Origin: an uncultured bacterium
GTDB taxonomy: Bacteria > B130-G9
DNA: 64,000 nucleotides
Direction of reading: 5' to 3'
Assembly: GCA_965372715.1 (NCBI GenBank)
Contig: CBDVDH010000014.1
Coordinates: 4,298-68,297 of the forward strand
The notes under the pieces are model-generated. The model saw only the letters and a list, made by a program, of their open reading frames with translations. It had not been told where the DNA came from and ran no database searches. Both the position numbers and the translations under genes were made by a program. Position 1 is the first letter of the stretch; each line of letters begins with the position of its first letter. Below, one piece after another: positions 17,713 to 59,202 of the stretch.

Positions 17713-17730
17713 GCCTTCGGACGGCAGCTA

Positions 17731-27128: not shown

Positions 27129-27818
27129 CTACGAAATCCTGCACACACAACCGCAGGACCGCCCAGCGCCGGCGCCCGTCACCGCCCAGGCCAAGTTCCG
27201 CGAGCAAAAGAGGCTATGGGAGCGGAGGCTCTCCGCCCGTTGTTGTCGTGGGCACCCGTGCGTGTATTCCTTCGTGACCGTGCTCCAGTTTGAGTCATAT
27301 TCTTGAATGACGTCATCGCCGTCGTAAAAGAACTTACGCGTGCCGGATGAATCCGTCAAGCTGAGGCGCTTGCTGTCGGGGCCGTAGGTCATTGACTGGA
27401 TTGAGGCCATCCCCTCGGTGACGGATGTCAGCCTATCAAATGCGTCATACGCATAGCTGCGTGTTACGCCGCCCGTCGTCTTGCCAGCTATGTTTCCATT
27501 GTCATCGTGCGTGTAGCTGGTGCCGATGGTGCCTTCGGTCGATTGCGTCAGCCCATCTGCGGCGTTGTAGATATAGGACACGGTGGCGTCAGAGCTGCGC
27601 GTCCAGAGCGTCCTGTTGCCGTTATCGTCATACGTGAACGTGTCGGTATTGCCGGCGGGATACTCGACCTCGGTCAGCTGCCCCTCTGCGTCGTAGGTGT
27701 ATTCCGTCTCGCCGACGTTGAACTCGTCCTTCTCGGTGACCTGCCCGCAGGCGTCGAACGTGTATTCGATGCTCGACACCGTCGTCCCGTCGGACTTCAG
27801 GTTGTCAATCGCCCACAT
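27129..27818 (-). pseudogene. Truncated orphan Rhs/YD-repeat fragment (YD repeats only), ending abruptly next to tRNA-Leu.
   Basis: YD-repeat units (YTYDAEGQLTEV, YTYDDNGNRT, YAYDAFDRLTSV, FFYDGDDVIQEY) run up to KEYTHG and then diverge into non-homologous sequence. Nt 27297-27440 is about 93% identical to 29283-29426. Confidence 0.7.
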
Positions 27819-27824
27819 ACGGCA

Positions 27825-28127
27825 CTATTCCTGACGCATGGCACGTCGCACCTTGACCCACATAACCAGTATATGGCCGAATACAACGAGCATTACGACT
27901 ATCGCAAATATATGCCAACCTCGATGGCCTTCTCTAGACGAGACGAGCACACCCGACCATCCTAATGTCGCTGAAACAATCGCCAGATACCATGCCCACT
28001 TGCGTTTGGGCCCTGAGAAGAAGCGTATTCGCTCCCTTAGGTCCATGCGAACGGTTGTAGCAATGAGAAATATCACGGTGGCGCAGCCCACAATGTCCAA
28101 TAAAATACTAGCCCAGAAACTCAGCAT
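27825..28127 (-). CDS. Small integral membrane protein; candidate immunity protein for the 28265..29773 toxin tip.
   Basis: Three predicted TM helices (LLDIVGCATVIFLIATTV, WYLAIVSATLGWSGVLV, IFAIVVMLVVFGHILVMWV). It lies immediately downstream of an Rhs C-terminal cassette on the same strand. Confidence 0.4.
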   Translation of the reverse strand: MLSFWASILLDIVGCATVIFLIATTVRMDLRERIRFFSGPKRKWAWYLAIVSATLGWSGVLVSSREGHRGWHIFAIVVMLVVFGHILVMWVKVRRAMRQE

Positions 28128-28264
28128 TGCTCAAATCCTCCCGACTGCCGATGCAGCTGACAAATCAAATCCTTCCCTAACCGTGGGCCATGCAGAGGGG
28201 ACGCCAACGATTGCCCCTCTCTGCATTGCCGCGGCGGATTCCTCTATTCCCTCAAATGTGACCC

Positions 28265-29773: not shown

Positions 29774-30996
29774 TCAAAAGGCGTGTAGCCTCGGGCGTCT
29801 TTGGGGAAATCGAGGATCATGACTGGCTCGGGCAAGGTCAGTCTCGAGAGTAGCGTCCCTTCAAGATCATAGACAGCATAGCCAGATATGGCCAATGCGT
29901 CCTCCTCCCACTCACCCTTCAGTAGCCCGAATCTTTTGTTGTCACGGGAACACCGGATTCTTAAGGCGTGCACCTCCTTCAGCACCAGTTTTTTGTGTCC
30001 GGTACCTGTTTCGAGGCGCCAGAGAGTGCAGGACCGACTTGACAGGTGTGCGCCTTCCCGCGCAACGTAGAACATGAACCTCAGGTCGGGCGTAACTCCC
30101 GAAAGACCACGCGTACCTGCAACCAGAGTCTTGCCGGCCTGGACGAAGTCCGCGGTAGCTTCAGGACCTAAGGGATTGCCTCGCACGACGCCCACAATTG
30201 GCTCGGCGTCCGGCGGCAAAACGCAGCTGTCAACCGATACTGTATCCTCTGGCAACGGAATAAGCTTTTCGAGCGAGCCATCTTCCAGAGAGTATATCGC
30301 CACGTTGATACGACTATTCGATACCTTGTCAGGGGGCGCGGAGTGAACGCGCTCGAACTGGCCAGCGCCAGGCCTCTTCGCCAGAGATCCGGGAATGTGT
30401 TTTCCTTGGATGATGACCGGAAGTACTCCTGGAGACACGCCAACCTTGTAAACACAAATCCCGACATCCTCGGTTCTGCAAAGCAAAGTATCCAACAACG
30501 CGTTCTCGCTATCCAAGCAATAGATACACGGAAGGATGGAACCACCGACATCCTCCCCCCGCAGGAGCCGCTCGCACTCGTCACCGCGAACCCCATTCAG
30601 AAGAAAAAAGCGTGGGAAACCCGCATTGGAGAAGAACGGGAAGCACGGCATCCGGCCCGACCCAGCGATTTCTTGAAACCTGTGCACCGCTACGTCTGGT
30701 CCCGACCAAAAACAGAGCTGACCAAGCTCAATGGGATGCGCGGTGTCCCCATTAACCACGATGGTCCGGGTCCTCTTGAGATACGCAACGGAAGAACTTT
30801 CAGCAACAAAGGCGAGGTCTCGAACTCCTTGGCACCGTTTCTCTTCAGCGCCGATTCTGCCTGATCCACCGAGATGGCAACCTGATATCAGAAGGGCGCA
30901 GACCACCAGAAGGGCTATGACCGGCAATCTAGGTTTGTGTCTTCCTCGGAAGACCCTGGTCCATGATCGATCTCTCTGCATACTGTTGTCTCCCAA
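29671..30996 (-). CDS. Lipoprotein of unknown function; candidate immunity or accessory protein of the upstream Rhs cassette.
   Basis: Lipobox-like LLVVCALLISGC after a basic N-terminus; there are no recognisable catalytic motifs. The annotated 5' end overlaps the start region of the 28265..29773 ORF, so one of the two starts is likely internal. Confidence 0.4.
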   Translation of the reverse strand: MGDNSMQRDRSWTRVFRGRHKPRLPVIALLVVCALLISGCHLGGSGRIGAEEKRCQGVRDLAFVAESSSVAYLKRTRTIVVNGDTAHPIELGQLCFWSGPDVAVHRFQEIAGSGRMPCFPFFSNAGFPRFFLLNGVRGDECERLLRGEDVGGSILPCIYCLDSENALLDTLLCRTEDVGICVYKVGVSPGVLPVIIQGKHIPGSLAKRPGAGQFERVHSAPPDKVSNSRINVAIYSLEDGSLEKLIPLPEDTVSVDSCVLPPDAEPIVGVVRGNPLGPEATADFVQAGKTLVAGTRGLSGVTPDLRFMFYVAREGAHLSSRSCTLWRLETGTGHKKLVLKEVHALRIRCSRDNKRFGLLKGEWEEDALAISGYAVYDLEGTLLSRLTLPEPVMILDFPKDARGYTPFDWDLDGEQLVYWDKKADMIVIKKFNGTVVASFAP

Positions 30997-31115
30997 TATT
31001 AAAAGTTTGACGCCTTCATTCCTGGTTCCCGCATGAGACCCGGCGCAAGGCCGGCAGTTTGGGTCAGCGACTCAGCATTAGGGGCATCAAATTCAATGCA
31101 ACACTCGTGATCCTG

Positions 31116-32732
31116 CTACAGTATCAGGGGGCCTTCTGGGTCAGAAGCAATCGGAGGTGGTTCGACTAGCTTTCGCTTGCCACCCCCCTGATCGGGATGA
31201 CCACTCCAGTCGTTGATGCGGCTGCATCCAGTGCGATCCCCCAAGCCAGGGTCAGTGAATCCCGGACGCTCACCGCCTGTAAGGAGCCGGGTGTTGTCGA
31301 TCTCTCGCTGCAGAAATCGCATTTGTGCCTCAATTCCTGCCATCAGGCCGCGAAACACATCCTGGCCCGGGTTGCTCTGGCCCCCTTGGAGCATCTGGCC
31401 TATCATCATCTCCCCTATCAACCCAGGAGGCATTCCCATTCCATTGCACAAGCCTTCCCCGATAGCCACGCCAATGGTGAAGGCACCTGCCGCAGCCTTA
31501 TGTGGCTTCTTCTTGATTATGCCTGTTGCGAGGTCGGATGCCCCTTTCGCGGCGCCCCGGCCCTTAGCCCAGCCATATGCCTTTCGCCAACCCCACTCGA
31601 TCGCATCTGCAACGGGATGTTTCGGGCCTGAGCAGGGAAGAATTATCCACCACCACCAAGGGCCTGGCACCGCGACTGGGATGCCACCGTCAATGTCTCC
31701 GCCTTGGCTTGACAAGTTCAGATCATTGGAGCCGATTGAGCTGCCGGCGAGCATGCCAAATGGGTCGGTGAAGTTTTGGGGGGAGTTGTTGCAGTAGGCG
31801 TAGAGGGAGGAGAGGGACATGATGGGGTCGCGGGAGAAGAAGCGCCCGAGGGATTGGTTGTAGTAGCGGGCGCGGTAGAAGTAGGCGCCCATCGCTCCGT
31901 CATAGACACGGCCAGTGAAGCGATACATGCAGTCCACCTGCCCTGAGTGATACGTCGCGGTTGGCTCGCCGAACGCGTCGTAGCTGTAAGTGGTTTTGAG
32001 GGTCTCGTTCTCGTCCAAGATATCTATTATCGAGCCGAGGCGGTCCTTCATCAGGTAGTAGGTGTCGTCCGCCTGCTTCGCCGTCTTGTCAGTCATTGAG
32101 AGAGGCTCGTCAACCCAGGGCCCGTGCGTGTATTCTTTTCTAACGGTTGACCAGTTGGAGTCATATTCCTGAATCACATCGTTTCCGTCATAGAAGAACT
32201 TACGCGTGCCGGACGAGTCTGTCAAGCTGAGGCGCTTGCTGTCAGGGCCGTAGGTCATCGACTGGAGCGTCGTTTGCCCCTGGACGACGGAGCTCATCCG
32301 GTCGAATGGGTCGTAGTTGAACGTCTTGGTGACGCCGCCGGTCGTCTCACCGGTGAGGTTCCCGTTGTTGTCGTGGGAGTAACTCGTGCCGATTGTGCCC
32401 TCGGTCGATTGTGTCAGCTGGTCGGCGGAGTTGTAGATGTAGGACACGGTGGCGTTCGAGCTGCGTGCCCACTCCGTCCTGTTGCCGTTGTTGTCATACG
32501 TGAACGTGTCGGTATTCCCCGCTGGATAGGAGACTTCGGTCAGCTGCCCCTCGGCGTCGTAGCTGTATTCCGTCTCGCCAACGTTGTACTCGTCCTTCTC
32601 GGTGACCTGCCCGCAGGCGTCGAACGTGTATTCGATGCTCGACACAGTCGTCCCGTCCGACTTCAGGTTGTCAATCGCCCACATCCGGCCTCTCCTCAGC
32701 AAGGGCGAGTGTGTCTCCAATGACTCGGCCAA
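31116..32732 (-). CDS. Orphan Rhs/YD-repeat C-terminal cassette with a Trp-rich/glycine-rich tip that differs from 28265..29773.
   Basis: It starts in YD repeats (MWAIDNLKSDGTTVSSIEYTFDACGQ...), has the core-end motif ...YFYRARYYNQSLGRFFSRDPI, then PGPWWWWIILPC...GAFTIGVAIGEGLCNGMG and the shared MPPGLIGEMM...DWSGHP tail. Confidence 0.75.
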   Translation of the reverse strand: MAESLETHSPLLRRGRMWAIDNLKSDGTTVSSIEYTFDACGQVTEKDEYNVGETEYSYDAEGQLTEVSYPAGNTDTFTYDNNGNRTEWARSSNATVSYIYNSADQLTQSTEGTIGTSYSHDNNGNLTGETTGGVTKTFNYDPFDRMSSVVQGQTTLQSMTYGPDSKRLSLTDSSGTRKFFYDGNDVIQEYDSNWSTVRKEYTHGPWVDEPLSMTDKTAKQADDTYYLMKDRLGSIIDILDENETLKTTYSYDAFGEPTATYHSGQVDCMYRFTGRVYDGAMGAYFYRARYYNQSLGRFFSRDPIMSLSSLYAYCNNSPQNFTDPFGMLAGSSIGSNDLNLSSQGGDIDGGIPVAVPGPWWWWIILPCSGPKHPVADAIEWGWRKAYGWAKGRGAAKGASDLATGIIKKKPHKAAAGAFTIGVAIGEGLCNGMGMPPGLIGEMMIGQMLQGGQSNPGQDVFRGLMAGIEAQMRFLQREIDNTRLLTGGERPGFTDPGLGDRTGCSRINDWSGHPDQGGGKRKLVEPPPIASDPEGPLIL

Positions 32733-32768
32733 ACCGATGCCATTCAGGAACTATCGCGCGCAACCCAA

Positions 32769-33065
32769 TCACTGGTTCTCTTCTTGAGATTCGTGTTTCT
32801 TGATTTCTTCGTTGTATTGACACAGCAGCAATCTCAGCATCATCAAATACAAGACTGGGAAACCGATTACACCCACTGCGACCACCACATACACGGCCAG
32901 ACCGAAGTCTCTCGGATGACCGCGGCTCATCATACTCACTAGAACCATAACTCCCAGCCCAAACACTATAGTAGCAATAACACTGGATGAAAATGCCGCG
33001 ACTGAGCCCACGGACCGTTGTACCCACGCCCGGGGGTTTCTAAATGGATTGATGAAGATTTTCAT
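32769..33065 (-). CDS. Small membrane protein; candidate immunity protein.
   Basis: Two or three TM helices (VAAFSSSVIATIVFGLGVMVLVSMM, LAVYVVVAVGVIGFPVLYLMML). It lies between two Rhs cassettes on the same strand. Confidence 0.4.
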   Translation of the reverse strand: MKIFINPFRNPRAWVQRSVGSVAAFSSSVIATIVFGLGVMVLVSMMSRGHPRDFGLAVYVVVAVGVIGFPVLYLMMLRLLLCQYNEEIKKHESQEENQ

Positions 33066-33128
33066 GCGCTCATTTCCTTGTAAGTCATGAATGTGATTCC
33101 CCGACGCGTCACCTGTTGTGTCATTCTG

Positions 33129-34175
33129 TTATGGCCATCTGGGGTTATGGGGATCGAATTCGGAGCCCTTGGGATCACCTTCGCCTGCATGATCTTCCTC
33201 ACCGCCAATAGGATTGTCCATAATGAGGACGGCAACACCAACCCCGGCGATGGCAATGCCGCCTGTCGTACTAATTCCCAAGATACCAGCCACGAAACCA
33301 GCTACGGTCAAGGCCGCCCCAAGAACACTCCAGGAGCTGGTTTCCTCTTCCGCCTCCTCTTCCTTCACCCATACCGTCTCCCCATCATCCGCTACGTATT
33401 TCTCGGCACCATCCTCGTCCTTCTCGCCGGTGCTTGTATAGGTTTTGCCATTGATCACTATCTTATCGCCTTTCTTCGAGCACGGCAGTCCCGTCATCCT
33501 GCGATGCCAAATTAGGCCAAACCCCATTTCGCTGGGGACGAACTCATCTCCGCCGATAGAGAGCCCTAACATCCCGAACGGGTCCTTGAAGTTCGTGGGG
33601 CTGTTGTTGCAGTAGGCATAGAGGGATTGGAGTGAGAAGATGGGATCGCGGGAGAAGAAGCGGCCGAGCGATTGGTTGTCGTAGCGGGCTCGGTAGAAGT
33701 AGGCGCCCATTGCGCCGTCATAGACGCGGCCGGTGAAGCGATACATGCAATCGACCTGGCCGCTGTGGTGGGTTGCGGTTGGCTCGCCGAACGCGTCGTA
33801 GCTATATGTTGTCTTGAGCGTCTCGTTCTCGTCGAGGATGTTGATTATGGAGCCGAGGCGATCTTTCATTAGGTAGTAGGTGTCGCCGGCCTCTCTTGCA
33901 GTCTTGTCGGTCATGGAGAGTGGCTCATCGATCCAGGGCCCGTGCGTGTATTCTTTGGTCACGGTGCTCCAGTTTGAGTCATATTCCTGAATCACGTCGT
34001 TTCCATCGTAGAAGAACTTGCGCGTGCCGGACGCGTCTGTCAAGCTGAGGCGCTTGCTGTCGGGGCCGTAGGTCATTGATTGGAGCGTCGATTGGCCCTG
34101 GACGACGGAGGTCATCCGGTTGAACGCGTCGTAGTTGAACGTCTTGGTTACGCCGCCGGTCGTCTGGGTTGTCAT
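33129..34175 (-). CDS. Orphan Rhs/YD-repeat C-terminal cassette with an acidic and glycine-zipper tip.
   Basis: Core-end motif ...YFYRARYDNQSLGRFFSRDPI, followed by the unique tip ...EEEAEEETSSWSVLGAALTVAGFVAGILGISTTGGIAIAGVGVAVLIMDNPIGGEEDHAGEGD. Confidence 0.75.
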   Translation of the reverse strand: MTTQTTGGVTKTFNYDAFNRMTSVVQGQSTLQSMTYGPDSKRLSLTDASGTRKFFYDGNDVIQEYDSNWSTVTKEYTHGPWIDEPLSMTDKTAREAGDTYYLMKDRLGSIINILDENETLKTTYSYDAFGEPTATHHSGQVDCMYRFTGRVYDGAMGAYFYRARYDNQSLGRFFSRDPIFSLQSLYAYCNNSPTNFKDPFGMLGLSIGGDEFVPSEMGFGLIWHRRMTGLPCSKKGDKIVINGKTYTSTGEKDEDGAEKYVADDGETVWVKEEEAEEETSSWSVLGAALTVAGFVAGILGISTTGGIAIAGVGVAVLIMDNPIGGEEDHAGEGDPKGSEFDPHNPRWP

Positions 34176-34277
34176 GTTGCCGTCCCTAGCCTGACGCGAA
34201 CCGGGAAATGAGATTTTTGCAGCGTATGGCTGCCTCCGCTTGATGGAGCCGTCCGAATGCGCGTAAACGACGGGCGC

Positions 34278-35537
34278 CTATTTGCCCGCCGTCGGTGGCG
34301 ATGGCTTCTTTGCGTCCTTGAGTATCTTCCCGACACCGTATGTCGCCTTCTTCAAGACCTTAGCCTTATTGGTCTTGAAGTCATACCTGATTATCCTCCA
34401 TGGTCTTGGTGGCGGGATGTGATAGATCAGGCAATCCTCATGATCGAAGTAATGCCAACAGTCAAGTGTTGTACACGGCGAAAGATCGCCGCTGGTAACG
34501 ACGGCCCTTCGTGCTACAACGTTCAGGGTCCGATCGGTTGTGGTAAGGTGCAGTGTCTCTCCGTTGCAGCTGGCGAAAACGAGGCGATCGCCGGGAACGG
34601 ACCAACCCATACGGGTCTGGTTCGATTTGCCTGGCATATCAGGTACGGCGGTCGGCCCAGCAATTTGGGCTATTCGGCCGCTCGAAAGAGCCCAAATCGA
34701 GACGAGGGACCGCTTGGCTCCCGGGGCCTTGTGAAACGCCGAGAAATAATTGCGGTCGCAGGAAAAAGCAAGAGTGTCGGCATCCAATGGGTCTTCGTCC
34801 GTTAGGTAATGACTGGCGGCTCCCTTTGAAAGGTCTGACAGGTTGAAGGTAACAGCATAGATGCGTGGCCCACCCTTGGGCTCGCTCCTGAACTCTCTCA
34901 TCAGAAGGCCAATGTGGCTATCGGAAGTGTCCAGCAATGTACCCACCAAGCTCGAGCCCCTGGGGACGGAATAAGGCGCCTCGGCTAAGATCCTCCCGTC
35001 CGGACGTGCAATCCTGAATAGCCAACGCTCAAAAGGGCCATCCTCCTCGGCAGAGCGCTCCTCTGCTTTGAATACGAACGCCCATCCCTCGAGAGAAGCA
35101 AGATAAGAGGAGACACACGCAGGAAAAGGCACGCTCGGGAGCTCTATTCTATACTTCGACACGGCCTCCCTTTTTCCTGTTTGCAGAACCTCAAACCAGA
35201 AGCGCGGTATGCGCTCCACTCGATAAATCATAACACCCAAGTCTCTCGGTGAAGCCTCCTCAATTATGGCCAGAAGGCTGTACTCGGGGACGATCTGCTC
35301 ATTTTCCCGGTCGAGCAAAACCACCCACTCATCGCATCCAACCAAATAGAGCTTCGCTTGAAATTCTACCTTCGCCTCCTCGGGATACTGTGATGGAGCA
35401 GGCCATTTCGTTTCCCAAATCACTAGATTGCCCGACTCTGTCGGGCTTGAGAAGATGAAAGACCCGGAATACTTCCGCTCCGCCGCCAAAACCTGGGGTA
35501 GAAGCAGCAACAGAATGAGTAAGCTACGACCAATCAT
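34278..35537 (-). CDS. Secreted protein of unknown function; candidate immunity or accessory protein.
   Basis: Signal peptide MIGRSLLILLLLLPQVLAAE; no recognisable catalytic motifs. It lies downstream of the 35600..36463 cassette. Confidence 0.4.
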   Translation of the reverse strand: MIGRSLLILLLLLPQVLAAERKYSGSFIFSSPTESGNLVIWETKWPAPSQYPEEAKVEFQAKLYLVGCDEWVVLLDRENEQIVPEYSLLAIIEEASPRDLGVMIYRVERIPRFWFEVLQTGKREAVSKYRIELPSVPFPACVSSYLASLEGWAFVFKAEERSAEEDGPFERWLFRIARPDGRILAEAPYSVPRGSSLVGTLLDTSDSHIGLLMREFRSEPKGGPRIYAVTFNLSDLSKGAASHYLTDEDPLDADTLAFSCDRNYFSAFHKAPGAKRSLVSIWALSSGRIAQIAGPTAVPDMPGKSNQTRMGWSVPGDRLVFASCNGETLHLTTTDRTLNVVARRAVVTSGDLSPCTTLDCWHYFDHEDCLIYHIPPPRPWRIIRYDFKTNKAKVLKKATYGVGKILKDAKKPSPPTAGK

Positions 35538-35599
35538 GTCTCTATATGCTCCTTTGCTGCAAAAGCGTGTTGTTCCACCAACAATCGGGAATTCTATCT

Positions 35600-36463
35600 T
35601 CAGCCCTCCGGAAATTCAAGATCGGGACGTCGAAAGGCTATCGCTGGGTCTGGCGGCGGCGGGAGGTCCCCATTGAGGGCCCAAAGCATGCAAGCCCCTG
35701 GACACCACAACCGCACTGCCCACCCGTAGTCCTCCGGGCTCAGATTGTCCCACGCGCAACTGGTGCAGCACCTCAGACAACAGGACAGCTTTTTCCCAAA
35801 ATCGGTGTGCTGCGCACATTTCTCGGCGAGGCATTTGATAACCCAAACATAGAACTTGCCCCAATCTGAGACCTTGCCAACAACTGCACGCATACGTTCG
35901 ACCTCAATGGGGCCGAAGAAGGCCTCGATTGGGTCCACCAAAGGCTCGTACTCGGGGCGGCCCGTCAGCGATTCGTCTGACAGCCCCGTCGGGTCGGTGA
36001 AGTTTGCCGGCGAGTTGTTGCAGTATGCGTAGAGGGATTGCAGCGAGAAGATGGGATCGCGGCAGAAGAAGCGGCCCAATGATTGGTTGTAATACCTCGC
36101 CCGATAGAAGTAGTTGCCCATCGCGCCATCATAGACGCGGCCTGTGAAGCGGTACATGCAATCAACTTGGCCGCTGTGGTGGGTGATTGTGGGGTCGCCG
36201 AAGGCGTCGTAGCTGTAGGTTGTTTTGAGGGTTTCGTTCTCGTCGAGGATGTCGATTATCGAGCCGAGGCGATCTTTCATTAGGTAGTAGGTGTCGCCGG
36301 CCTCCCTTGCAGTCTTGTCCGTCATCGGCGGAGAGCCTCCGCTCCCGAGACATGGGCCGAGGCGCCGCGTTCGCGTCGCTTCGGCTGTGGAGGCGAGCTC
36401 GGAACGTGCGAGCCGTCCGGTTTCATACGCAGGTAGAGAAAGGTATCCGAGTGCCGTGGGCAC
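35600..36463 (-). CDS. Orphan Rhs C-terminal cassette with a Cys-rich tip. It is degraded at the 5' end, where frame changes join it to fragment 36322..36594.
   Basis: ...MTDKTAREAGDTYYLMKDRLGS...YFYRARYYNQSLGRFFCRDPI, then the tip ...CLAEKCAQHTDFGKKLSCCLRCCTSCAWDN...LWCPGACMLW. Confidence 0.65.
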   Translation of the reverse strand: MPTALGYLSLPAYETGRLARSELASTAEATRTRRLGPCLGSGGSPPMTDKTAREAGDTYYLMKDRLGSIIDILDENETLKTTYSYDAFGDPTITHHSGQVDCMYRFTGRVYDGAMGNYFYRARYYNQSLGRFFCRDPIFSLQSLYAYCNNSPANFTDPTGLSDESLTGRPEYEPLVDPIEAFFGPIEVERMRAVVGKVSDWGKFYVWVIKCLAEKCAQHTDFGKKLSCCLRCCTSCAWDNLSPEDYGWAVRLWCPGACMLWALNGDLPPPPDPAIAFRRPDLEFPEG

Positions 36464-36594
36464 CTGTCGGGAACGTAGGTCATGGATTGGAGCGTCGATT
36501 GGCCCTGGACGACGGAGGTCATCCGGTCAAAGCAGTCGTAAGCGTAGCTGCGCATCGTCACGGCCTCCCTAAGGCTTGACGAGGGCCCATACAC
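36322..36594 (-). pseudogene. Short Rhs/YD fragment (SYAYDCFDRMTSVVQGQSTLQSMTY) in a different frame from the following cassette.
   Basis: Matches the YD-repeat region of the other cassettes, then runs out of frame. Confidence 0.5.
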
Positions 36595-42791: not shown

Positions 42792-44471
42792 TTACCCAGC
42801 CGACTCAAGCCCAGGGATTTTGACGCCTTTCTCCTTCGCGGTGTCGATCGCAGCCTGGTAGCCCGCGTCCGCGTGGCGAGCTATGCCGCTGCCCGGGTCA
42901 CAGGTCAGTACCCGCTCGAGGCGCCTCGCCGCCTCGTCGGTTCCATCGGCCACTATGACCATGCCGGCATGGATTGAGAGGCCAATCCCGACGCCGCCGC
43001 CATGGTGGACGGATACCCAGCTCGCGCCTGAAACGGCGTTAAGCAACGCGTTGAGGATAGGCCAATCAGCGATAGCGTCGCTTTTGTCCTTCATGCCCTC
43101 CGTCTCGCGGTAAGGCGAGGCGACCGAGCCGCTGTCGAGGTGGTCCCTGCCGATCACAATCGGCGCCTTGACCCTCCCCTGTCGAACGAGGTCGTTGATC
43201 GCCAGGCCGAACTTCGCCCGCTCGCCGTAGCCAAGCCAGCAGATGCGACTTGGGTAGCCCTGGAACTTCACCCTCTCGCGAGCCGCCTTGATCCATCGGC
43301 ACAGAGGCTCGTCGTTCGGAAAGAGACTCAGCACGAGCTCATCCGTTTCATAGATGTCCTGCGGATCGCCCGACAGCGCGACCCAGCGGAAGGGCCCCTT
43401 TCCTACGCAGAACAGCGGCCTGATATAGGCCGGAACAAACCCCGGGAAGTCAAACGCGTTCTCCACGCCGGCCAACTTCGCCTGGCCACGGATGTTATTT
43501 CCGTAGTCGAAGACGACGGAGCCGTTTCTCTTCATGTCGAGCATCGCCTGAACGTGCTTTGCCACGGACTCGAACGCCAGCTTCTGGTATTTGTCGGGGT
43601 CGGCTTTCCTCAAGGCAAGCGCGTCCTTGTATGCTATCCCCGCCGGGACGTAGCCGTTTAGCATGTCGTGGGCGCTCGTCTGGTCGGTAACAAGCTCGAA
43701 GAAAATGCCCCGGCGAACGAGCTCAGGATACACATCCGCGGCGTTGGCGACCAGCCCCACTGACCTCGCGACTCTCTCCTTTCTCGCATCATCGATGGTC
43801 CTTAGCGCCGCATCCAATTCATTGGTTATCACGTCAACATAACCGGTTTTCAGGCGCCGATCCGCACGCATCACATCGACCTCAACGCCCAGAAACGAGG
43901 CGCCGTTGAGAGTCGCCGCGAGAGGCTGCGCGCCCCCCATGCCTCCGAGCCCTGCTGAGAGGATGGTCTTGCCCGACATGTCGCCGCCAAAATGTTTCTG
44001 AATCGCCGCGGCAAATGTCTCGTAGGTGCCCTGGAGTATCCCCTGCGTGCCGATGTATATCCAGCTCCCGGCGGTCATCTGACCGTACATCGTCAGGCCG
44101 AGGCGCTCCAGCTCGCGGAACTTCTCCCAGGTCGCCCACTGCGGCACTAGAAGCGAATTGGCAATGAGCACCCTGGGCGCGTCCGGCGTCGTCTTGAACA
44201 CGCCGACCGGCTTGCCGGACTGCACCAGCAGCGTCTCGTCGTTCTCGAGTTCCTTCAGCGCGGCCACGATATTGTGGAAAGCCTCCCAATTGCGTGCGGC
44301 CTTCCCCGTCCCGCCATAGACGATTAGCTCCTGCGGTTTTTCGGCGACGTCCTCGCTGACGTTGTGCATCAGCATCCGCATCGCCGCCTCCTGTAGCCAA
44401 CCCTTGCACGAGATCTCAGCGCCCAATGGCCGCTCAATCGGCTTGTATGCCGCCATATCCTTATCCTCCAC
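42792..44471 (-). CDS. hutU: Urocanate hydratase (urocanase).
   Basis: Full-length match by eye to the HutU family (N-terminal [28 protein letters not shown], the NAD-binding GGMGGAQP and internal blocks); length 559 aa. Confidence 0.9.
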
Positions 44472-44534
44472 ACTCAGGTTCCGCGTGTCATCTCAATGGA
44501 TTCACTCTGCCACGACGGCCTCAATGCGCCAAGC
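44281..44534. repeat. Copy 1 of a 254-bp direct duplication covering hutU codons 1-64 plus 63 nt upstream. It is about 97% identical to 47489-47742.
   Basis: Direct nucleotide comparison; the boundaries are sharp. Confidence 0.85.
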
Positions 44535-44706
44535 GGAGAAGACGGCCCAAATAGTCAGATTGAGCCGGCGAATGTTGCGGCGGCCTCGCCAAAGGGCCGA
44601 GCGTTTGATTTGGAGTGCGGCGGCTTGACGCCGCTTTCACACGCCGTAGCCTGATGCGGCGCTGTTTCTGCCGGTCAATCAATCCGCGGGGATAATAAAC
44701 GCATAG

Positions 44707-47010
44707 TCAATAAGCGATCGAAAACGGGAACGAGCTTGGCTGGCCGATGACCTCGAATCGGATCGGCTTGGACAGGGCGCTGGCGAAGAGGTAGTTGCCC
44801 ACGGGAAGCCCGCCCGGAACTAGTGTGCTTAGAAGAGTGGTTGGGTCCATACAATAGCCTCGCGGCAGAAGCAGACCCCTCATATAAGGGAATATCCCGA
44901 ACGCAATCCTATCCGGAGAGATACACAAAATGGCTCCGTCGGGGAAGACGAAGGCGAAATAGACATCCACAAAAACGTCCGAGCCCATGTTCTCAATCTC
45001 ATACGCGGCAACGAGCGTGTCGCCGAGCGCAAACTCTGTGTTGTTGAGCGAGCAGTCGATCGTTGGTTTCTCGGCAGCAGGTATGAGGACGCTGACGCCG
45101 CCGTGAGGCGTCCCGAACCACTTGCTCCCGTCGGGAGCTATGGCGATGGCCCAGACATTGTCGTAGCCCAAACCGCTGTTGCCGGTATTGTAAGTCGTCC
45201 AGCTGCCGTCGCCGTGCAGGACGCTCACGCCGCCCAAACGCGTCCCGAACCACTTGCTCCCGTCAGAATCTATGGCGATGGCATAGACCCAATCGTCGGC
45301 CAAACCGCTGTTGCCCGTGTTATAAGTCGTCCAGCTGCCGCCTGCGTGCAGGACGCTGACCCCGCCGCTCCGCGCCGTCCCGAACCACTTGCTCCCGTCG
45401 GGAGCTATGGCGATGGCATTGACATAGTCGTCGGCCAAACCGCTGTTGTCCGTTCTGTAAGTAGTCCAGCTGCCGTCGCCGTGCAGGACGCTGACCCCGT
45501 ATGACGTCCCGAACCACTTGTTCCCATCAGAATCTACGGCGATGGCATCGACCCAGTTCGAAGCCAAACCGCTGTTGCTCGTATTGTAACTCGTCCAGCT
45601 GCCGTCGGCGTGCAGAACGCTGCCTCCGCCGCCCCGCGTTACAAACCATTTGCTCCCTTCAGAAGCTATGGCGATGGCCCAGACCGAATCGTGGGCCAAA
45701 CCGCTGTTAGCTGCATTGTAGGTTGTCCAGCTGCCGGCTGGGTGCAGGACGCTGACGCCGCCCGACGTCCCGAACCACTTGCTCCCATCGGGAGCTATGG
45801 CGAGGGCATGGACATAGTTGTCGGCCAAACCGCTGTTGGCCGTATTGTAAGTCGTCCAGCTGGCGTCGGGGTTCAGCACGCTAACGCCGCCCCCCGTTAC
45901 AAACCACTTGCTCGCGTCGGAATCTATGGCGATGCCATGGACAATGTCGCTGGCTAAACCGCTGTTGCTCGTATCAGGAGTAGTCCAGCCGCCGTCGGGT
46001 TGCAGGACATTGACGCCGCCGCAATCCGTCCCGAACCACTTGCTCCCGTCGGGACCTATGGCGATGGCCTGAACATAGTTGTCGGCCAAACCGCTGTTGG
46101 CTGTATTGTAAGTCGTCCAGCTGCCGTCTGGGTGCAGGACGCTGACCCCACCGGGGTAGAATCTAGCGTCTCCGTACACGTAATGCGTGCACGTCCCGAA
46201 CCACTTGCTCCCGTCGGGACCTATGCCGATGGCCCGGACATAGTCGCTGGCCAAACCGCTGTTGGACATATTGTAAGTAGTCCAGCTGCCGTCTGGGTGC
46301 AGGACGTTGACCCCACCGGGGTATATTCCGCCAATAGAGCCTGCCCCGAACCACTTGCTCCCATCGGGAGCTATGGCGATAACATTGATCGGTAAGACCG
46401 CCAAACCGCTGTTGAACATACTGTAAGTAGTCCAACTGCCGTCGGTGTGCAGCACGCTGACGCCGCCCGACGTCCCGAACCACTTGCTCCCGTCAGAATC
46501 GATGGCGATGGCGCTAACCCTATCGCTGGCCAAACCGCTGTTGCCCATATTGTAAGTAGTCCAGCCGCCGTCGGCGTGCAGGACGCTGACGCCGCCTCCC
46601 CACGTCCCGAACCACATGCTCCCGTCAGAAGCTATGGCGACGGCCTGGACATAGTCGCTGGCCAAACCGCTGTTGGCTGTACTGTAGGTAGTCCAGCTAC
46701 CGTCAGCATGCAGGACGCTGACGCCGCCTCCCCAAGTCCCAAACCACTTGGTCCCGTCAGAAGCTATGGCGACGGCAAAAACGCGATTTGCGGCCAGGCC
46801 ATCGGCGCGGGTGTAAACCGTCTTATCGCCGGTTCGCAAATCGAATCGCACAACGCCCCCCGACCCTCCGCACCACACGTATTCGTCGCCCTCAAAAGCG
46901 ATGGCGCGAACCTCCGTACCGGCGGTGTAGTTGAGCCATGTGTCCCCGGCAAACGTCGTTGCCGCAATGAACACAAAAACCAGCGTGGTCACAGTCAGTC
47001 CCAAACGCAT
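44707..47010 (-). CDS. Secreted beta-propeller protein with about 15 two-component-regulator-propeller (Reg_prop, Y_Y_Y-type) repeats and a C-terminal roughly 115-aa domain shared with the first ORF of the window.
   Basis: Signal peptide. Iterated 45-aa units ...GSWTTYNT.NSGLA.DYV.AIAID.DGSKWFGT.GGVSVLH. The C-terminal IDCSLNNTEFALGDTLVAAYEIENMGSDVFVDVYFAFVFPDG resembles VSCSLNADEFASGDLMRGFMSVENRGVDVMVDIFAVITMQDG of ORF 1..2615. Confidence 0.75.
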   Translation of the reverse strand: MRLGLTVTTLVFVFIAATTFAGDTWLNYTAGTEVRAIAFEGDEYVWCGGSGGVVRFDLRTGDKTVYTRADGLAANRVFAVAIASDGTKWFGTWGGGVSVLHADGSWTTYSTANSGLASDYVQAVAIASDGSMWFGTWGGGVSVLHADGGWTTYNMGNSGLASDRVSAIAIDSDGSKWFGTSGGVSVLHTDGSWTTYSMFNSGLAVLPINVIAIAPDGSKWFGAGSIGGIYPGGVNVLHPDGSWTTYNMSNSGLASDYVRAIGIGPDGSKWFGTCTHYVYGDARFYPGGVSVLHPDGSWTTYNTANSGLADNYVQAIAIGPDGSKWFGTDCGGVNVLQPDGGWTTPDTSNSGLASDIVHGIAIDSDASKWFVTGGGVSVLNPDASWTTYNTANSGLADNYVHALAIAPDGSKWFGTSGGVSVLHPAGSWTTYNAANSGLAHDSVWAIAIASEGSKWFVTRGGGGSVLHADGSWTSYNTSNSGLASNWVDAIAVDSDGNKWFGTSYGVSVLHGDGSWTTYRTDNSGLADDYVNAIAIAPDGSKWFGTARSGGVSVLHAGGSWTTYNTGNSGLADDWVYAIAIDSDGSKWFGTRLGGVSVLHGDGSWTTYNTGNSGLGYDNVWAIAIAPDGSKWFGTPHGGVSVLIPAAEKPTIDCSLNNTEFALGDTLVAAYEIENMGSDVFVDVYFAFVFPDGAILCISPDRIAFGIFPYMRGLLLPRGYCMDPTTLLSTLVPGGLPVGNYLFASALSKPIRFEVIGQPSSFPFSIAY

Positions 47011-47445
47011 ATCGTGCCTCCTTTACTCTTGCTAGCATGGGGTGTCTGCAAAATGAATCAGAAATCATGTTAAAGAACCATAACACAAATAGCGAGGCGT
47101 TCAACACTTTCGGCGAATCGTTTGGAGTGCGGCGAGCTGTCTCCCGCACAATCAAATCGAGCTGGGGCATGTTGCGGCAGCTTCCGGAAGGGGCGCGCGA
47201 GCTTGTGCCCGAAAGGGCAGACCATGGGCAGCCGTTCGGCGCGCGGCGAAACGGTGCAATTGGTGGCACAATCCTGCCGTTTTGACCTCCCCGTTGCCTT
47301 TTGTGTACGGCTGCCCGTTGACCGTCAATCTGACTATCGAGGATCGCGCCGTTGAGAAGGGACCGCGTAAGGGCTGATTACAGACCGATATTTCACAATT
47401 TAACCCGAAGAGCAAAGCTGGCGGTCGTGACTGCTGAAGAGATCA

Positions 47446-47679
47446 TCAACAACCTAACGGAGCTCGAGAGCCCGTAAGGCTGTGGATGGCCTCCCAACTT
47501 CGGGCGGCCTTCCCCGTCCCGCCATAGACGATTAGCTCCTGCGGTTTTTCGGCGACGTCCTCGCTGACGTTGTGCATCAGCATCCGCATCGCCGCCTCCT
47601 CTAGCCAACCCTTGCACGAGATCTCACTGCCCAATGGCCGCTCAATCGGCTTGTATCCCGCCATATCCTTATCCTCCAC
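47446..47679 (-). pseudogene. Duplicated 5' fragment of hutU (first 64 codons), then out-of-frame read-through.
   Basis: [60 protein letters not shown] is nearly identical to the HutU N-terminus, and homology stops at the duplication boundary. Confidence 0.75.
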
Positions 47680-47742
47680 ACTCAGGTTCCGCGTGTCATC
47701 CCAATGGATTCACTCTGCCACGATGGCCTCAATGCGCCAAGC
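47489..47742. repeat. Copy 2 of the 254-bp hutU-5' duplication.
   Basis: See 44281-44534. Confidence 0.85.
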
Positions 47743-47896
47743 TCTCGACGCCGGAACCTGTTCAATCCATAAAGCGGGCGGGTCAAAGACCGCGCCCCTA
47801 CATCTCCAGAATCTGAATTACTGGAAAGCCTCCCACTCCGGTTGACAATCTGCTCGGTTTATATTACCCCACGACAAAGGGACATCAGAGGAAAAG

Positions 47897-48970
47897 ATGG
47901 ATAAGACGGCGAGGCTCCTGAAGATGCTAGTCGAGGCGGAGGGCATCTCCGGCTTTGAGCATGACGTCAGAAGCATTGTTCAGGACGAGCTAAGAGGTGT
48001 CGGGACGCTTCGGACCGACCGACTCGGCAGCGTCATCTGCGAGCATAAGGGCGCCTCGTTAACGCCCAGGATAATGATCGCAGGCCACATGGATGAGATA
48101 GGTCTTATCGTCCAGCAGGTCACCGACGAGGGCCTCGTCAAGTTCCTCCCGGTCGGGGGCTGGCAGACCCGAAACATGACTGCCCAGAAGGTCTCCATAA
48201 GAACCCGGAAGGGACCAGTCGTCGGCGTGGTCGGCTTCACCGATCCGTGGGACGCCGACAAGAAGAAGTGGGATAAGGTCCTCGAGATGAAGGAGCTCTT
48301 CATCGACGTGGGCGCCTCAGTTGGCTTCGACGTAAAGGAAGAGCTCGACATTCGCCCCGGCGACCCGATTACGCCGGTCTCCAAGTTTGAGATCATGAGC
48401 AACACAAAGATGTATATGGCGAAGGCTTGGGACGACAGGATCGGCGTTGCGGTGGGGATCGAGGCGATGAAGCGCCTCGCCAAGAGAAAGCATCCGAATA
48501 CGGTCTGCGGCGTCGGGACAGCTCAGGAGGAAGTGGGCTTACGAGGCGCGAAGACGAGCGGCGCGGAGGTGAGGCCGGACGTTGCCTTTGCCGTCGATGT
48601 CTGCGGCTCATTCGACACCCCCGGCCACGACAAGGGTCGCGCCGACAGGGTCGGCAATGGGGTAGGAATCATGGTCCACGGCGGCGCTGTCTTCCCCAAC
48701 CCGAAGCTGCGCGATTTTATGATAGACCTTGCCGAAACAAAGAGAATCAAGCACTTCCTCGGGAGCATCCCCAGGGGCGGGACCGATGCGGGTCGCATCC
48801 AGATCGGCGGCACAGGCGTCCTGGCAATGTACATTGGCATACCGACGCGATACGGCCACTCTCACAACAGCATCGTCCACCGGGGCGATTTCGATGCGGC
48901 CGTGAGGCTCATGGTCGAGGCGTGCATGGCCCTCGATAAGGAAACTGTGGAGCGGCTGAGGACGTTTTAA
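47897..48970 (+). CDS. M42-family glutamyl aminopeptidase / FrvX-like peptidase.
   Basis: N-terminal LLKMLVEAEGISGFE and IMIAGHMDEIGLIV..., plus the GVGTAQEEVGLRGA block typical of M42/CelM peptidases. Confidence 0.8.
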   Translation: MDKTARLLKMLVEAEGISGFEHDVRSIVQDELRGVGTLRTDRLGSVICEHKGASLTPRIMIAGHMDEIGLIVQQVTDEGLVKFLPVGGWQTRNMTAQKVSIRTRKGPVVGVVGFTDPWDADKKKWDKVLEMKELFIDVGASVGFDVKEELDIRPGDPITPVSKFEIMSNTKMYMAKAWDDRIGVAVGIEAMKRLAKRKHPNTVCGVGTAQEEVGLRGAKTSGAEVRPDVAFAVDVCGSFDTPGHDKGRADRVGNGVGIMVHGGAVFPNPKLRDFMIDLAETKRIKHFLGSIPRGGTDAGRIQIGGTGVLAMYIGIPTRYGHSHNSIVHRGDFDAAVRLMVEACMALDKETVERLRTF

Positions 48971-49407
48971 GCCAGCTTGTTCGGCATTGAGTCCTGTCCT
49001 GCCTGGGAATGATTCCCGCCGATGAAAACCGCGCGGCCAACGTTTCGCCCCGGTTTTCCTCCACGACGGGTGTGACTCTAGATTCTAGGTAGATGATTTG
49101 CTGTCATCTCGACCGCGTTTCAACGCGGTCATATAGATGGCTCTCATTATATTAGCACCCGACTTCGAGTCGGGTGAGTTGAGGACGTGAGGCACAGCCT
49201 CCTCCCTCCCCAGAATCCTCATCTGATGAGAACGTAAGGGAGCGTTTTCGGCTCTCCAGACCCCACAGCTGAAGCAGTGGGTTAATACATGATAGCCTTG
49301 TGCATCGCCTCGGCTGAAGCCGGGCGATGAGGGAACTAGCGCATGATGCGCCTCGGCCCCCTAACCCGCGAGCCAGCACCATTTATAGGGGGACAAAAGC
49401 CAAGACT

Positions 49408-49491
49408 CGACGTTACCTACAATCCAGGGTCAAACCCGGCACGACCTGTGCCTTGCTGCCTTTCTCGCTTTCTTCCTTACATAATCAGCAG
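49408..49491 (-). pseudogene. Possible decayed remnant of the conserved small Cys-peptide gene family, downstream of beta-helix gene 49492..51123.
   Basis: Minus-strand frame reads KEESEKGSKAQVVPGLTLDCR-stop, weakly resembling KKEGHGYEPPRVLTLDNE of the intact peptides. There is no start codon. Confidence 0.25.
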
Positions 49492-51123
49492 CTAACGGAG
49501 CCGCATCGCCGCACGGCCGAGAGGCAGTTCGATCAACTTGAAGCTTATTGGAAGCCTCGCCGAAACCGGCCCGTGGGCCGTCCACTTGCCGCTGGTCTCG
49601 ATGTCAACCAGCCAGTAGTTGTAGGTGACGCCCGGCGCAGCGTCCATATCCACGAAAATGTACGAGGCGCCGTAGGCTGGGCTGCCTTCCGCTCCGATCA
49701 GGTTGCTTATCCGGAGGTAGTCGCTCGTGTCTGCAACATTCCTGAAGAGCATGAAGCCGGCGTTTCTGATCTCGGTCCCCGTTTCCCAGGCCAGAATGAT
49801 AGAGCCGTCGTGGGGCTTGGCCTCGAACGACACCAGCTCGATATATGTGCAGCCCCATCTCTTGTAATGATAGCCCATATCGACCCTGTTGATGTCGATC
49901 AGCGGGTTTGAGTTGTTCCGGTGATCGGTCGAATACTCAGTGTTCGTCGTGGGGTCATTGAATGGGTTTTCAGCAGGGCCGCCCTCGCCCGTGTCGATGC
50001 ACGGGCTGGGTCCCGTATGGCTCGTGTGATACAGGAAATAGCCGTCATACGGCATGTTCTCGAGCCCTATCTGGTGAAACTGAGGAGGCGAACTGATGTT
50101 GCCCTCGCCGTCCCAGTCACCCTGGATACAAGAGTAAGTGATGACGATTGAGTTGCTCGACTCCCCGTCTCCACCTATCTCGTCCGGGGAATCGCCCCAG
50201 AAGATAGAGTTCACCACTGTTGGCTCGCACTCGGAGTTCATGAAAAGTGCCCCACCGAGACCGGTTGCAGTGTTCCCCGAAAACGTGCAGTTCGTGATGA
50301 CAGGCGAGGCGTTGTCGCAGTATATGCCCCCTCCATTGCCGTCACATAAGTTGTCGATGATCAAGCAGTTGGTGAGCCCTACCGACGTAGAGGCGTTGTC
50401 GCAGTAGATGCCCCCACCGTCATCACCATCACCATCACCAGTGGCCGAGTTCCCTGCGATCACGCAATCCGTGAAACTCGGCGAGGAAGCGGAGTTGGAA
50501 TAGACGCCGCCACCGCCATCACCAATATCACCACCAGTGGCCGAGTTCTCTGCGATCACGCAGTTTGAGACGTCTGGCGAGGCAGAATCGTCGCAGTAAA
50601 TGCCGCCGCCACGGTCTGCAGAGTTACCGGTAATGCGGCAGTTCGAAATGGTCGGGGAGGCGTCGTTGCAGTAGATACCGCCACCAGCGTAACCGGCCCA
50701 GTTTGAGACCCAGTGACCGCTCCCATTCGTGATCGTGAAGCCATCGATGGTCACGTCGGTGATGCCATTGCAACTGATCACCCCGTCCGTCTGATTCGCG
50801 TCAATGGTTGTGTCAGGATGGCCCGATCCGAGTAAGGAGACACCGTCCCTCATTACCAGGGGGAACTCTTCGCCGTTATTGTCAAAGTCGTAAAGGCCAG
50901 GGGCCACATGAATCGCATCACCGGCCGTAAGGTCAGTATCTGCTAAAGCATCGGTTATCCGTTTGTACGGGGCCCCAGCCGTGCCATCATACGATGGCCC
51001 GGTTGCATCGTCATCAACATAAATATCGTCTCCAAAGGCGCCGGCTACCATGATCGCGAACATCATGACCATGGTGGCGAGCGTCAATCTAATCTCTCGT
51101 CGTGAATACATCTCTCTCCTCAT
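49492..51123 (-). CDS. Surface/secreted right-handed parallel beta-helix protein with a conserved C-terminal roughly 115-aa domain; array member 1.
   Basis: N-terminal signal-anchor. Pectate-lyase-like cap YVDDDATGPSYDGTAGAPYKRITDAL. GGGIYC rungs are repeated about 8 times. DMGYHY junction, then the C-terminal AWETGTEIRNAGFMLFRN...YNYWLVDIETSGKWTAHGP. Confidence 0.8.
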   Translation of the reverse strand: MRREMYSRREIRLTLATMVMMFAIMVAGAFGDDIYVDDDATGPSYDGTAGAPYKRITDALADTDLTAGDAIHVAPGLYDFDNNGEEFPLVMRDGVSLLGSGHPDTTIDANQTDGVISCNGITDVTIDGFTITNGSGHWVSNWAGYAGGGIYCNDASPTISNCRITGNSADRGGGIYCDDSASPDVSNCVIAENSATGGDIGDGGGGVYSNSASSPSFTDCVIAGNSATGDGDGDDGGGIYCDNASTSVGLTNCLIIDNLCDGNGGGIYCDNASPVITNCTFSGNTATGLGGALFMNSECEPTVVNSIFWGDSPDEIGGDGESSNSIVITYSCIQGDWDGEGNISSPPQFHQIGLENMPYDGYFLYHTSHTGPSPCIDTGEGGPAENPFNDPTTNTEYSTDHRNNSNPLIDINRVDMGYHYKRWGCTYIELVSFEAKPHDGSIILAWETGTEIRNAGFMLFRNVADTSDYLRISNLIGAEGSPAYGASYIFVDMDAAPGVTYNYWLVDIETSGKWTAHGPVSARLPISFKLIELPLGRAAMRLR

Positions 51124-51284
51124 TCACGCTAAGCGTTCTGTTTCAGTTTCGCAGTCTGCTATCTATAAGCGCACTCTCCTATGCGCCTCCTTCCGTCTTT
51201 ACGCTTGAGTCAACCTCAATCCTTCATCCAACCATTGCAGCTTCGGCCGGCTGGAAGTTCGCCCGCGCGAATCTCCGAGAGCAG

Positions 51285-51381
51285 CCCTACACTGGCAGGC
51301 TAGAAAGCCTACCCTACGCTGACAGGCTAGAAAGCCCGCCCTACACGTTCACGGCCTGGGGCGGGGCGAAAGCCCCGCCCT
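51285..51381. repeat. Two reverse-orientation copies of the 27-bp unit (ggcaggctagaaagccYRccctac) followed by the hairpin ggggcggggcGAAAgccccgccc.
   Basis: Reverse complement of the 26764-26868 tandem unit; a perfect 10-bp stem hairpin at 51359-51381. Confidence 0.8.
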
Positions 51382-58755: not shown

Positions 58756-59202
58756 CTCTTCCTCCAATTGGATTGTTGTATTGGGAACAAGGAGCCTACA
58801 CAAGGTTCACGGTGCGCTATATCAATAATGCCTCAGACTGTCAACATGATTGGCTGAGCCCGAAAAATCAGATTGGGCCTAGCAAAGAGAGCCTTATGGA
58901 GTGCGGCGGCCTGACGCCGCTTTTCTTGGCGGTGACCCGGCGCCGCCTTCTCAAGACTGCGCTTGAGCTGGGCTCGCCGCGGCGCCTCAACTTGCCACCC
59001 CGCTAGGCGCAAAGAAGCCGCACTGGCGGCCCGCGAAAAGGATGAGTTCCGCTATGTGGGCCGACCGAAGGCCCGCCATTCTGCGTCCCATAGATACGTT
59101 CGAGAAAGCAGAAGAGACCTTCAAAGAGGCTCGGCTCTCCCAGTCAGCGGAGCTCGCTCGCGGTCTGCAAGAGGTGTTCGGGTGGTTAGGTACATCGCCC
59201 TG

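Follow-up and report, generated by a model that had tools for sequence, protein, structure and literature searches.

A repeated hutU start around a propeller gene

The DNA analyzed here, hereafter the window, is a stretch of 64,000 nucleotides (nt) from an uncultured bacterium (GTDB lineage Bacteria; B130-G9), positions 4,298 to 68,297 of the forward strand of contig CBDVDH010000014.1 in NCBI GenBank assembly GCA_965372715.1. It carries the start of hutU, the urocanate hydratase gene, twice: in a repeat search of the window, 44273–44534 (copy A) and 47481–47742 (copy B) form one two-copy direct repeat of 262 nt, 96% identical, with a spacing of 3208. Between the copies lies a gene for a Reg_prop propeller protein, here called P. 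The intact hutU with copy A, P, and copy B all lie on the minus strand, and a peptidase gene beyond copy B is divergent from them. The features of the locus, by position, are:

42792–44456, minus strand: hutU (urocanate hydratase), intact, 554 amino acids (aa) counted from ATG (a GTG at 44471 is an alternative start); 100% identity with database protein P0001
44273–44534, minus strand: repeat copy A, with hutU promoter-like region, 5′ untranslated region, ribosome-binding site (RBS) and first ~61 codons; functional, continuous with the rest of hutU
44504–44532, minus strand: promoter-like motif of copy A, TTGGCG (44532–44527), a 17-nt spacer ending TGG, and CAGAGT (44509–44504)
44535–44706, minus strand: spacer s, 172 nt from the P stop codon to the hutU promoter, colinear with the related loci L081 and L168; palindrome resembling repetitive extragenic palindromic (REP) elements at 44608–44637
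44707–47010, minus strand: P, Reg_prop propeller gene, 767 aa, with a hydrophobic signal-like N-terminus, ~14 blades and a C-terminal ~130 aa of unknown fold
47011–47351, minus strand: non-coding stretch upstream of P, with a strong RBS and degenerate REP-like motifs at 47121–47194
47352–47477, plus strand: remnant of X2 (HEPN-like), last 41 codons and stop; first ~87 codons missing
47481–47486, no strand: TGTGGA, 6-bp microhomology common to the native X2 3′ flank and hutU codons 60–62 (alignment A8)
47481–47742, minus strand: repeat copy B, with hutU promoter-like region, RBS and ~61 codons; dead fragment
47740–47735 and 47717–47712, minus strand: promoter-like motif of copy B, same motif as copy A
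47743–47896, no strand: intergenic region I1, 154 nt from copy B to the peptidase gene; 98% identical to positions 482–635 of the related contig L087, where it is continuous with intact hutU
47897–48970, plus strand: M42-family aminopeptidase gene, divergent from hutU; flank marker of the “empty” allele (L087: 96% aa, 96.8% nt)

The boundaries of the repeat are sharp, as identity in the 60 nt beyond each end is only 55–56%, the chance level. Over 44281–44534 and 47489–47742, 245 of 254 bases are the same (96.5%), and over the full length 251 of 262. These figures bear out the initial annotation, which had described a 254-bp duplication of the hutU start with sharp ends, a truncated hutU pseudo-ORF (open reading frame) at 47446–47679 in the second copy, and a hutU promoter region kept in both: the pseudo-ORF has 77 codons, 64 of them hutU codons counted from the GTG and 13 unrelated, and each copy holds the whole motif (TTGGCG-N17-CAGAGT), the RBS and ~60 codons. 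The accompanying statement that only the propeller gene and its upstream region lie between the copies stands as to P and needs a small correction as to the rest. The intervening DNA comprises the 172-nt spacer s, P, and a 470-nt stretch, Z, without a credible intact gene, the distal 126 of whose 470 nt are the 3′ remnant of another gene. Upstream of copy B come I1 and then the peptidase gene, not a second unit, and P, spacer s and X2 (the unique part that a tandem duplication would place upstream of the junction) each occur only once in the whole window.

The intact hutU contains all three urocanase Pfam domains and matches the NCBIfam hutU equivalog TIGR01228 over its full length, with 916.5 bits against a cutoff of 375. 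Copy B carries the substitution Q22E, a residue found in 0 of 117 aligned homologues, and of the seven differences that separate copies A and B in coding sequence, five are nonsynonymous; the ratio of nonsynonymous to synonymous divergence (dN/dS) between them is ~0.7, versus 0.04–0.07 in comparisons of functional hutU genes. Judged by this pattern of substitution, copy B is a real, decaying pseudogene. Apart from the window and L170, a contig discussed below, the 88 remaining hutU loci that were examined are all without an extra hutU fragment.

The upstream part of the repeat coincides with the one piece of hutU-upstream DNA that related loci have in common. In an alignment (A5) of eight hutU upstream regions, namely window copies A and B together with L087, L168, and L083–L086, TTGGC and TGGCAnAnT are invariant in 8/8 and the remaining upstream sequence is unalignable; the conserved blocks are TTGGC(G/A) and, 17 nt downstream, (TG)GCAnAnT, and L170 has the motif as well (alignment A7). 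It looks like a sigma-70-type −35/−10 pair with a TG upstream of the −10 and is a predicted promoter. A sigma-54 reading of the conserved TGGCA was rejected, since the −12 GC element is absent and the sigma-70 type with TG fits better. On the promoter side the repeat extends 2 nt beyond the −35 box, and this boundary is the point where the propeller-type and the peptidase-type contexts cease to be homologous. TTGGCG-N17-CAGAGT is the sole conserved sequence upstream of hutU in the aligned relatives, though their upstream genes differ, and hutU seems, from the alignment, to retain one constant core promoter in differing neighborhoods.

No terminator-like site was found between copy B and the propeller gene, and transcription starting at the putative copy-B promoter might plausibly run on into P. 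P also has a promoter-like site of its own at 47104–47077, consisting of TTGAAC (47104–47099), 16 nt, and TATGGT (47082–47077); the P of L168 likewise has one. As to the protein, the Reg_prop match reaches 82 bits (PF07494, gathering cutoff 20.4), and an assignment as PorZ was not made, the match being 130 against a cutoff of 260. The gene has 12 or more internal repeats of 129–135 nt each (about 132 nt). Identity between neighboring units reaches 91%, suggestive of recent expansion or homogenization.

An uninterrupted allele and the native origin of the insert

A scan with the peptidase protein (96% aa identity) recovered L087, a 2,684-nt metagenome contig from the Joint Genome Institute (JGI). 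Its positions 1–481 correspond to window 44054–44534, from the hutU body through copy A, at 97.5% identity, and its positions 220–1780 to window 47481–49043, that is, copy B, I1 and peptidase, at 96%; by segment, the hutU body is 97.7% identical, I1 98.1% and the peptidase gene 96.8%. In L087, the peptidase intergenic region adjoins hutU directly and the repeat occurs exactly once; the window has 3,208 bp more. The uninterrupted hutU-upstream-peptidase arrangement, which the initial annotation had proposed to seek in close relatives, is therefore present in one that is 96–98% identical. Because L087 has one copy and the same flanks, the two alleles differ by one crossover between the repeats. 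As a separate observation, L087 is also without the beta-helix/DUF1565 gene at 49492–51123 (window 49043–51232 versus L087 1780–2251); it has ~470 nt there instead, part of which matches window 49112–49330 inverted, making a second strain-level indel 1 kb away.

Three more distant loci, L081, L168 and L169 (JGI; hutU 92% aa), are colinear with window 47023–42782, with P, spacer s and hutU in the same order at ~80% nt identity (L168, 80.5%). L168 has a complete P orthologue of 753 aa within the order X2-X1-P-spacer-hutU, its homology to the window runs from 13 nt upstream of the P ATG to 10 nt past the hutU stop, and the 15-kb locus contains no second hutU 5′ copy. Synonymous divergence (dS) in hutU is 0.65 between the window and L168, 0.054 between copies A and B, and 0.08–0.09 between the window and L087. 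The linkage of P to hutU is thus roughly ten times older than the duplication (0.65 versus 0.054), and the suggestion in the initial annotation that the propeller gene was recently acquired is not supported in view of the colinear P-spacer-hutU block of these relatives. Its proposal of a Campbell-type insertion survives in part: the geometry and the empty site agree with it, whereas the content of the insert is native and no plasmid, phage or other carrier came to light. Considering that the block is colinear in relatives, that X2 is native, and that there is no sign of a carrier, the recombining piece would have come from the cell’s own chromosome or from one of the same species.

P has no orthologues other than those three, in a search of 5.8 billion proteins no other close homologue appeared, and the next best database matches are 40–51% identical. 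This rarity, along with the geometry and the empty site, is what one would expect if a foreign circular replicon or element carrying P and a captured hutU fragment had integrated recently. Against such a source, P, spacer and hutU are already colinear at a hutU dS of 0.65 and the far end of the insert is native X2; the GC content of P (0.60; 0.73 at third codon positions, GC3) is typical of the window; searches of plasmid, phage and viral collections gave no match to the insert, P or X2; and the insert contains no replication or mobilization gene. We consider a foreign replicon very unlikely. Compositional tests of foreignness proved uninformative, as the low tetranucleotide and codon correlations of P stem from its internal repeats. 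The L081 orthologue of P is frameshifted near its 3′ end, and its protein identity to P is 71%, versus 92% for hutU.

A site-specific mobile element (an integrase island, a transposon or an insertion sequence, IS) lodged in the hutU 5′ end, with the repeat as its att site or target-site duplication, would be a further possible source, given that some known islands enter the end of a gene and leave part of it duplicated. Pfam scans of the ORFs at 36.8–55.8 kb and of those within Z revealed no integrase or transposase, so that none lies in the insert or within ~6–8 kb; the ends of the repeat and insert have no terminal inverted repeats; and no tRNA gene is nearby, the nearest being at 20.7 and 27.0 kb. 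Among the features of an integrase island, neither a tyrosine or serine recombinase gene nor short att repeats are found, and among those of a transposon or IS, neither a transposase gene, terminal inverted repeats nor a 2–14 bp target-site duplication. At 254–262 bp, the repeat greatly exceeds the length of any att core or target-site duplication, and the truncated copy fails to restore the gene. A mobile element of this kind is thus extremely improbable.

The nearest named hutU relative (87%) is a metagenome-assembled genome of Candidatus Coatesbacteria, and the upstream neighbor of hutU varies among an M20 peptidase (L083), an unrelated Reg_prop gene (L084) and other genes, likewise unrelated (L085, L086, L167); the L082 contig begins too near hutU to show its upstream neighbor. 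The Reg_prop gene beside hutU in L084 was rejected as a P orthologue, at 24% identity. The best GTDB relative, L001 (hutU 84%), has no synteny with the window, exact-sequence look-ups of the window’s propeller, peptidase and hutU proteins returned no indexed contig, and a composite query (P N-terminus plus the hutU′ ORF) for copy-B-type junctions or N-terminal P fragments brought up nothing beyond short, unrelated pieces of hutU, an uninformative result. A REP-like palindrome, AAAGCGGCGTCAAGCCGCCGCACTCCAAA, recurs in the intergenic DNA of the window (44608–44637, 47121–47136, 58895–58910) and of relatives (L081 459–474; L085 11337–11352 and 11491–11506), so that REP-like copies lie on both sides of P, in the downstream spacer and, degenerate, upstream.

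Junctions, site patterns and possible histories

The far end of the insert identifies what Z once was. The X2 remnant is 88% identical in aa to residues 88–128 of P0363, a protein of 128 aa that is its sole match in 1.84 billion cluster representatives, and window 47352–47486 is 92% identical in nt to positions 777–911 of L170. Upstream of P in L168, and divergent from it, are X2 and a small gene, X1; P0363 and the L168 X2 share 38% identity (E = 1e-18). The latter weakly matches HEPN_IX (E = 0.0017), the single hit obtained for X1 or X2 from Pfam, PADLOC, NCBIfam and PDB, none of which placed either gene firmly in a family. As its end matches X2, Z is a decayed remnant of P’s native neighbor, from which X1 and the first two thirds of X2 have been lost. 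The remaining stretch, 47011–47351, has no Pfam or Rfam match and an unremarkable RNA fold (z = −0.9), and an Rfam search of 44200–48000 found nothing. The X2 and X1 genes are discordant in their divergence (window 47352–47477; L168 416–1104; L170 154–902): the window remnant is 92% identical in nt to the L170 X2, and the L168 X2 is only 38% identical in aa to the L170 type, yet X1 is 81% identical in nt between L168 and L170. This discordance suggests that X2 underwent allele replacement.

Copy B has a novel junction at either end, hutU codon ~61 against the X2 flank and I1 against the promoter edge. At the first, the native sequence past the X2 stop, as seen in L170, reads GGCTGTGGA and then unrelated bases, where hutU reads TGTGGA (TCCACA on the coding strand). 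Since TGTGGA is common to hutU and the X2 3′ flank, the junction of copy B with Z is best explained as an illegitimate join. It links hutU codon ~61 to a point 3 nt past the X2 stop, and a head-to-tail junction with microhomology is thus present in the window.

A second truncated hutU start is found in L170 (positions 1–1393; ENA ERZ23498683 scaffold_179991), where the promoter-like motif with 13 codons of hutU runs directly into the final 27 codons of a gene, W, that in L168 lies on the far side of X2; here the truncated hutU start adjoins intact X2-X1. The hutU′/W fusion occurs at an imperfect GGCGnGGC microhomology, and the contig ends, 1–135 and 1259–1393, are direct repeats of 135 nt that are 96% identical. 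The resulting 1258-nt unit, W′-X2-X1-intergenic-promoter-hutU′, would be repeat-flanked, tandem or circular. Because their junctions differ, the L170 and window events are independent. A further idea is that the hutU promoter/5′ fragment serves as a portable homology arm for integrase-free, pop-in/pop-out cassettes of X2-X1 with or without P. If so, such cassettes would excise as circles and re-enter any hutU-bearing chromosome by a RecA-type crossover, the second hutU promoter would express the cargo or read antisense into X2, and it would be accounted for that two lineages, the window and L170, independently have a truncated hutU start beyond X2. We regard this as unlikely; the recurrence of a truncated hutU start beside X2-X1 in a second lineage could nevertheless merit a population-level look.

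The substitutions within the repeat, numbered from the promoter-side end of its 262 nt, bear on the order of events. Copies A and B differ at 11 positions, copy A and L087 at 7, and copy B and L087 at 15; any of these differs from the L168 lineage at 23–28. At positions 86 and 245, copy B has the ancestral state, and copy A and L087 have common derived states, so that copy B is not a fresh copy of A. The private changes of copy B number 6–7 in 262 nt, or ~2.5%, versus the ~4–4.5% that each lineage has accumulated neutrally since the window/L087 split; being fewer than the lineage-neutral number, they mildly favor an event after the split, that is, insertion. Linear homology-facilitated illegitimate recombination was considered and rejected, as it predicts a copy B like the recipient (L087), but copy B is the most divergent from L087.

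Taken together, the structure is a real strain-level presence/absence variant and adds a case to a familiar type of structural variation. Its general frame, an illegitimate join combined with a homologous crossover of native DNA, we hold to be very probable. In the first step, a microhomology-guided head-to-tail join would have linked hutU codon ~61 to the X2 3′ flank, a junction that is seen and a process that we infer, yielding a 3,208-bp unit of X2 remnant, spacer, P, spacer, and hutU promoter with 5′ end; a join of this type would be left by a tandem duplication or, equally, by a circle excised from one. Subsequently, a single RecA-type crossover in the 254-bp hutU promoter/5′ segment would join the unit to an L087-type peptidase-hutU allele, giving a Campbell geometry in which no integrase takes part. 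As to direction, the version in which a same-species unit was inserted into a peptidase-hutU chromosome is slightly favored over loss in L087, and we adopt it tentatively.

Several points weigh against this account. The empty site is represented by a single 2.7-kb metagenome contig, and the structure itself is known from assembled contig sequence. Since integration and excision give identical site patterns, the direction depends on timing arguments that are weak: with 6 private changes, the 95% range reaches the time of the window/L087 split; only position 19 hints at the place of the crossover (between 19 and 42), and a private mutation of copy A fits it equally; and position 78 conflicts with 86 and 245 under every model, so that gene conversion or repeated mutation is needed. 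Moreover, no strain with an unduplicated X2-P-hutU arrangement at >95% identity, the putative donor type, was found.

Alternatively, the history may have been purely local, with no need for DNA transfer. From an ancestor of the order peptidase...X2-(X1)-P-spacer-hutU, a tandem duplication (or a templated repair insertion) would make the hutU′/X2 junction, a deletion would fuse the peptidase intergenic region to the promoter edge of the upstream copy, and homologous recombination between the 254-bp repeats would later pop the block out to give the L087 allele. Parsimony on ((window, L087), L168) agrees with this, since it puts P in the ancestor and has L087 lose it; both the P-hutU pair and the X2 remnant belong natively to the clade, the L170 contig is evidence that head-to-tail joining occurs in this region, copy B is flanked by its two novel junctions like a copied patch, and its ancestral states at 86 and 245 fit a duplication before the window/L087 split. 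The timing and the boundary fit less well. Copy B would have to predate the split, yet it has 6–7 private changes where ~10–13 neutral ones are expected (probability about 0.1), and only chance would place the end of a deletion 2 nt from the −35 box. Furthermore, none of 80 peptidase loci carries P, no hutU locus carries the peptidase, and no relative has the peptidase upstream of X2 or P. On balance, we view a purely local origin as possible and somewhat less likely, and retain insertion of a same-species unit as the working interpretation.

Might the duplication instead have been made by the assembler? False duplications at haplotype boundaries are a known assembly artefact, the source is a metagenome-assembled contig of an uncultured bacterium, and both arrangement types occur in nature, so that co-existing peptidase-hutU and P-hutU haplotypes could have been falsely joined. 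Such a merger would, however, have to bridge the hutU′/X2 junction on an overlap of only 6 bp, far under any assembler k-mer. Copy B, the sequence most divergent from L087 (15/262, versus 7/262 for copy A) and the bearer of Q22E, is ill suited to a merger product, divergence from L087 is alike on both sides of the structure, and the decay of copy B as a pseudogene speaks against haplotype merging. An artefact is accordingly quite unlikely, and insertion of native DNA by join and crossover remains the preferred explanation.

Other repeats in the window and comparison with known systems

The window contains further repeat-associated structures away from hutU. A 26-nt unit, GTGTAGGGCGGGCTTTCTAGCCTGCC, occurs four times in tandem near a tRNA-Leu gene (26765–26868) and recurs inverted at 51284–51346 (90%), 24 kb away between two beta-helix genes; a palindrome related to GTGTAGGGCGGGCTTTCTAGCCTGCC lies in the peptidase-hutU intergenic region at ~47775–47800. 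From ~27100 to 36550 extends an array of RHS-repeat gene fragments with shared repeats of 77 to 300 nt at 70–90% identity, and by analogy it resembles the arrays of orphan (displaced) Rhs toxin tips, likewise built by homologous recombination. A segment at 16761–20740 is low in GC (0.38–0.45, versus ~0.57 elsewhere), has a tetranucleotide correlation of r = 0.12 and harbors a HEAT-repeat gene (18125–19360); it lies between 159-nt direct repeats (16761–16919 and 20514–20672, 79%), the second of which adjoins a tRNA-Pro gene (20664–20740). No integrase was found in this segment, which from its composition and repeats may be an old island.

What, then, does the hutU locus add to the known ways in which bacterial genomes gain and lose genes? 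An accessory gene for a secreted protein is present or absent among ~97% identical strains of an uncultured lineage without mobile-element machinery, and one microhomology join together with one homologous crossover would suffice to bring this about. Because the insert here is the gene’s ancestral neighborhood, a long flanking duplication alone does not imply foreign DNA. For practical work, short-read assemblies of this group can be expected to break or collapse at the 254-bp repeat. A literature search yielded no directly comparable natural case, and the structure is best placed by setting it beside four established systems.

First, the Campbell-type single crossover, familiar from suicide plasmids and the formation of Hfr (high-frequency recombination) strains, resembles the hutU locus in its repeats of the homology segment, its truncated and intact copies, its one-copy empty allele and its reversibility. 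It differs in that a vector or replicon is absent here, the ancestral neighborhood of the gene (X2 remnant and P) forms the insert, and a circular intermediate is hypothetical. Second, tandem duplications or amplifications formed at microhomology in bacterial chromosomes leave junctions such as that between hutU codon ~61 and the X2 3′ flank with its 6-bp microhomology, of which L170 offers a second case. In a simple tandem duplication, unlike here, the unique part of the unit would not be present in one copy only, with the peptidase gene and its intergenic region in place of the upstream unit.

Third, integrase islands, whether at tRNA and tmRNA genes or of the dusA type that enters a 5′ end, also duplicate a fragment of the target-gene end at their far side. 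The hutU locus, in contrast, has no integrase or short att core; its repeat is 254 bp at 96.5% identity, and its displaced copy is dead rather than a functional replacement. Finally, the homology-facilitated illegitimate recombination of natural transformation pairs a single homologous anchor with a single microhomology junction, as does the hutU locus, and usually replaces or deletes recipient DNA, whereas the outcome here is a duplication.

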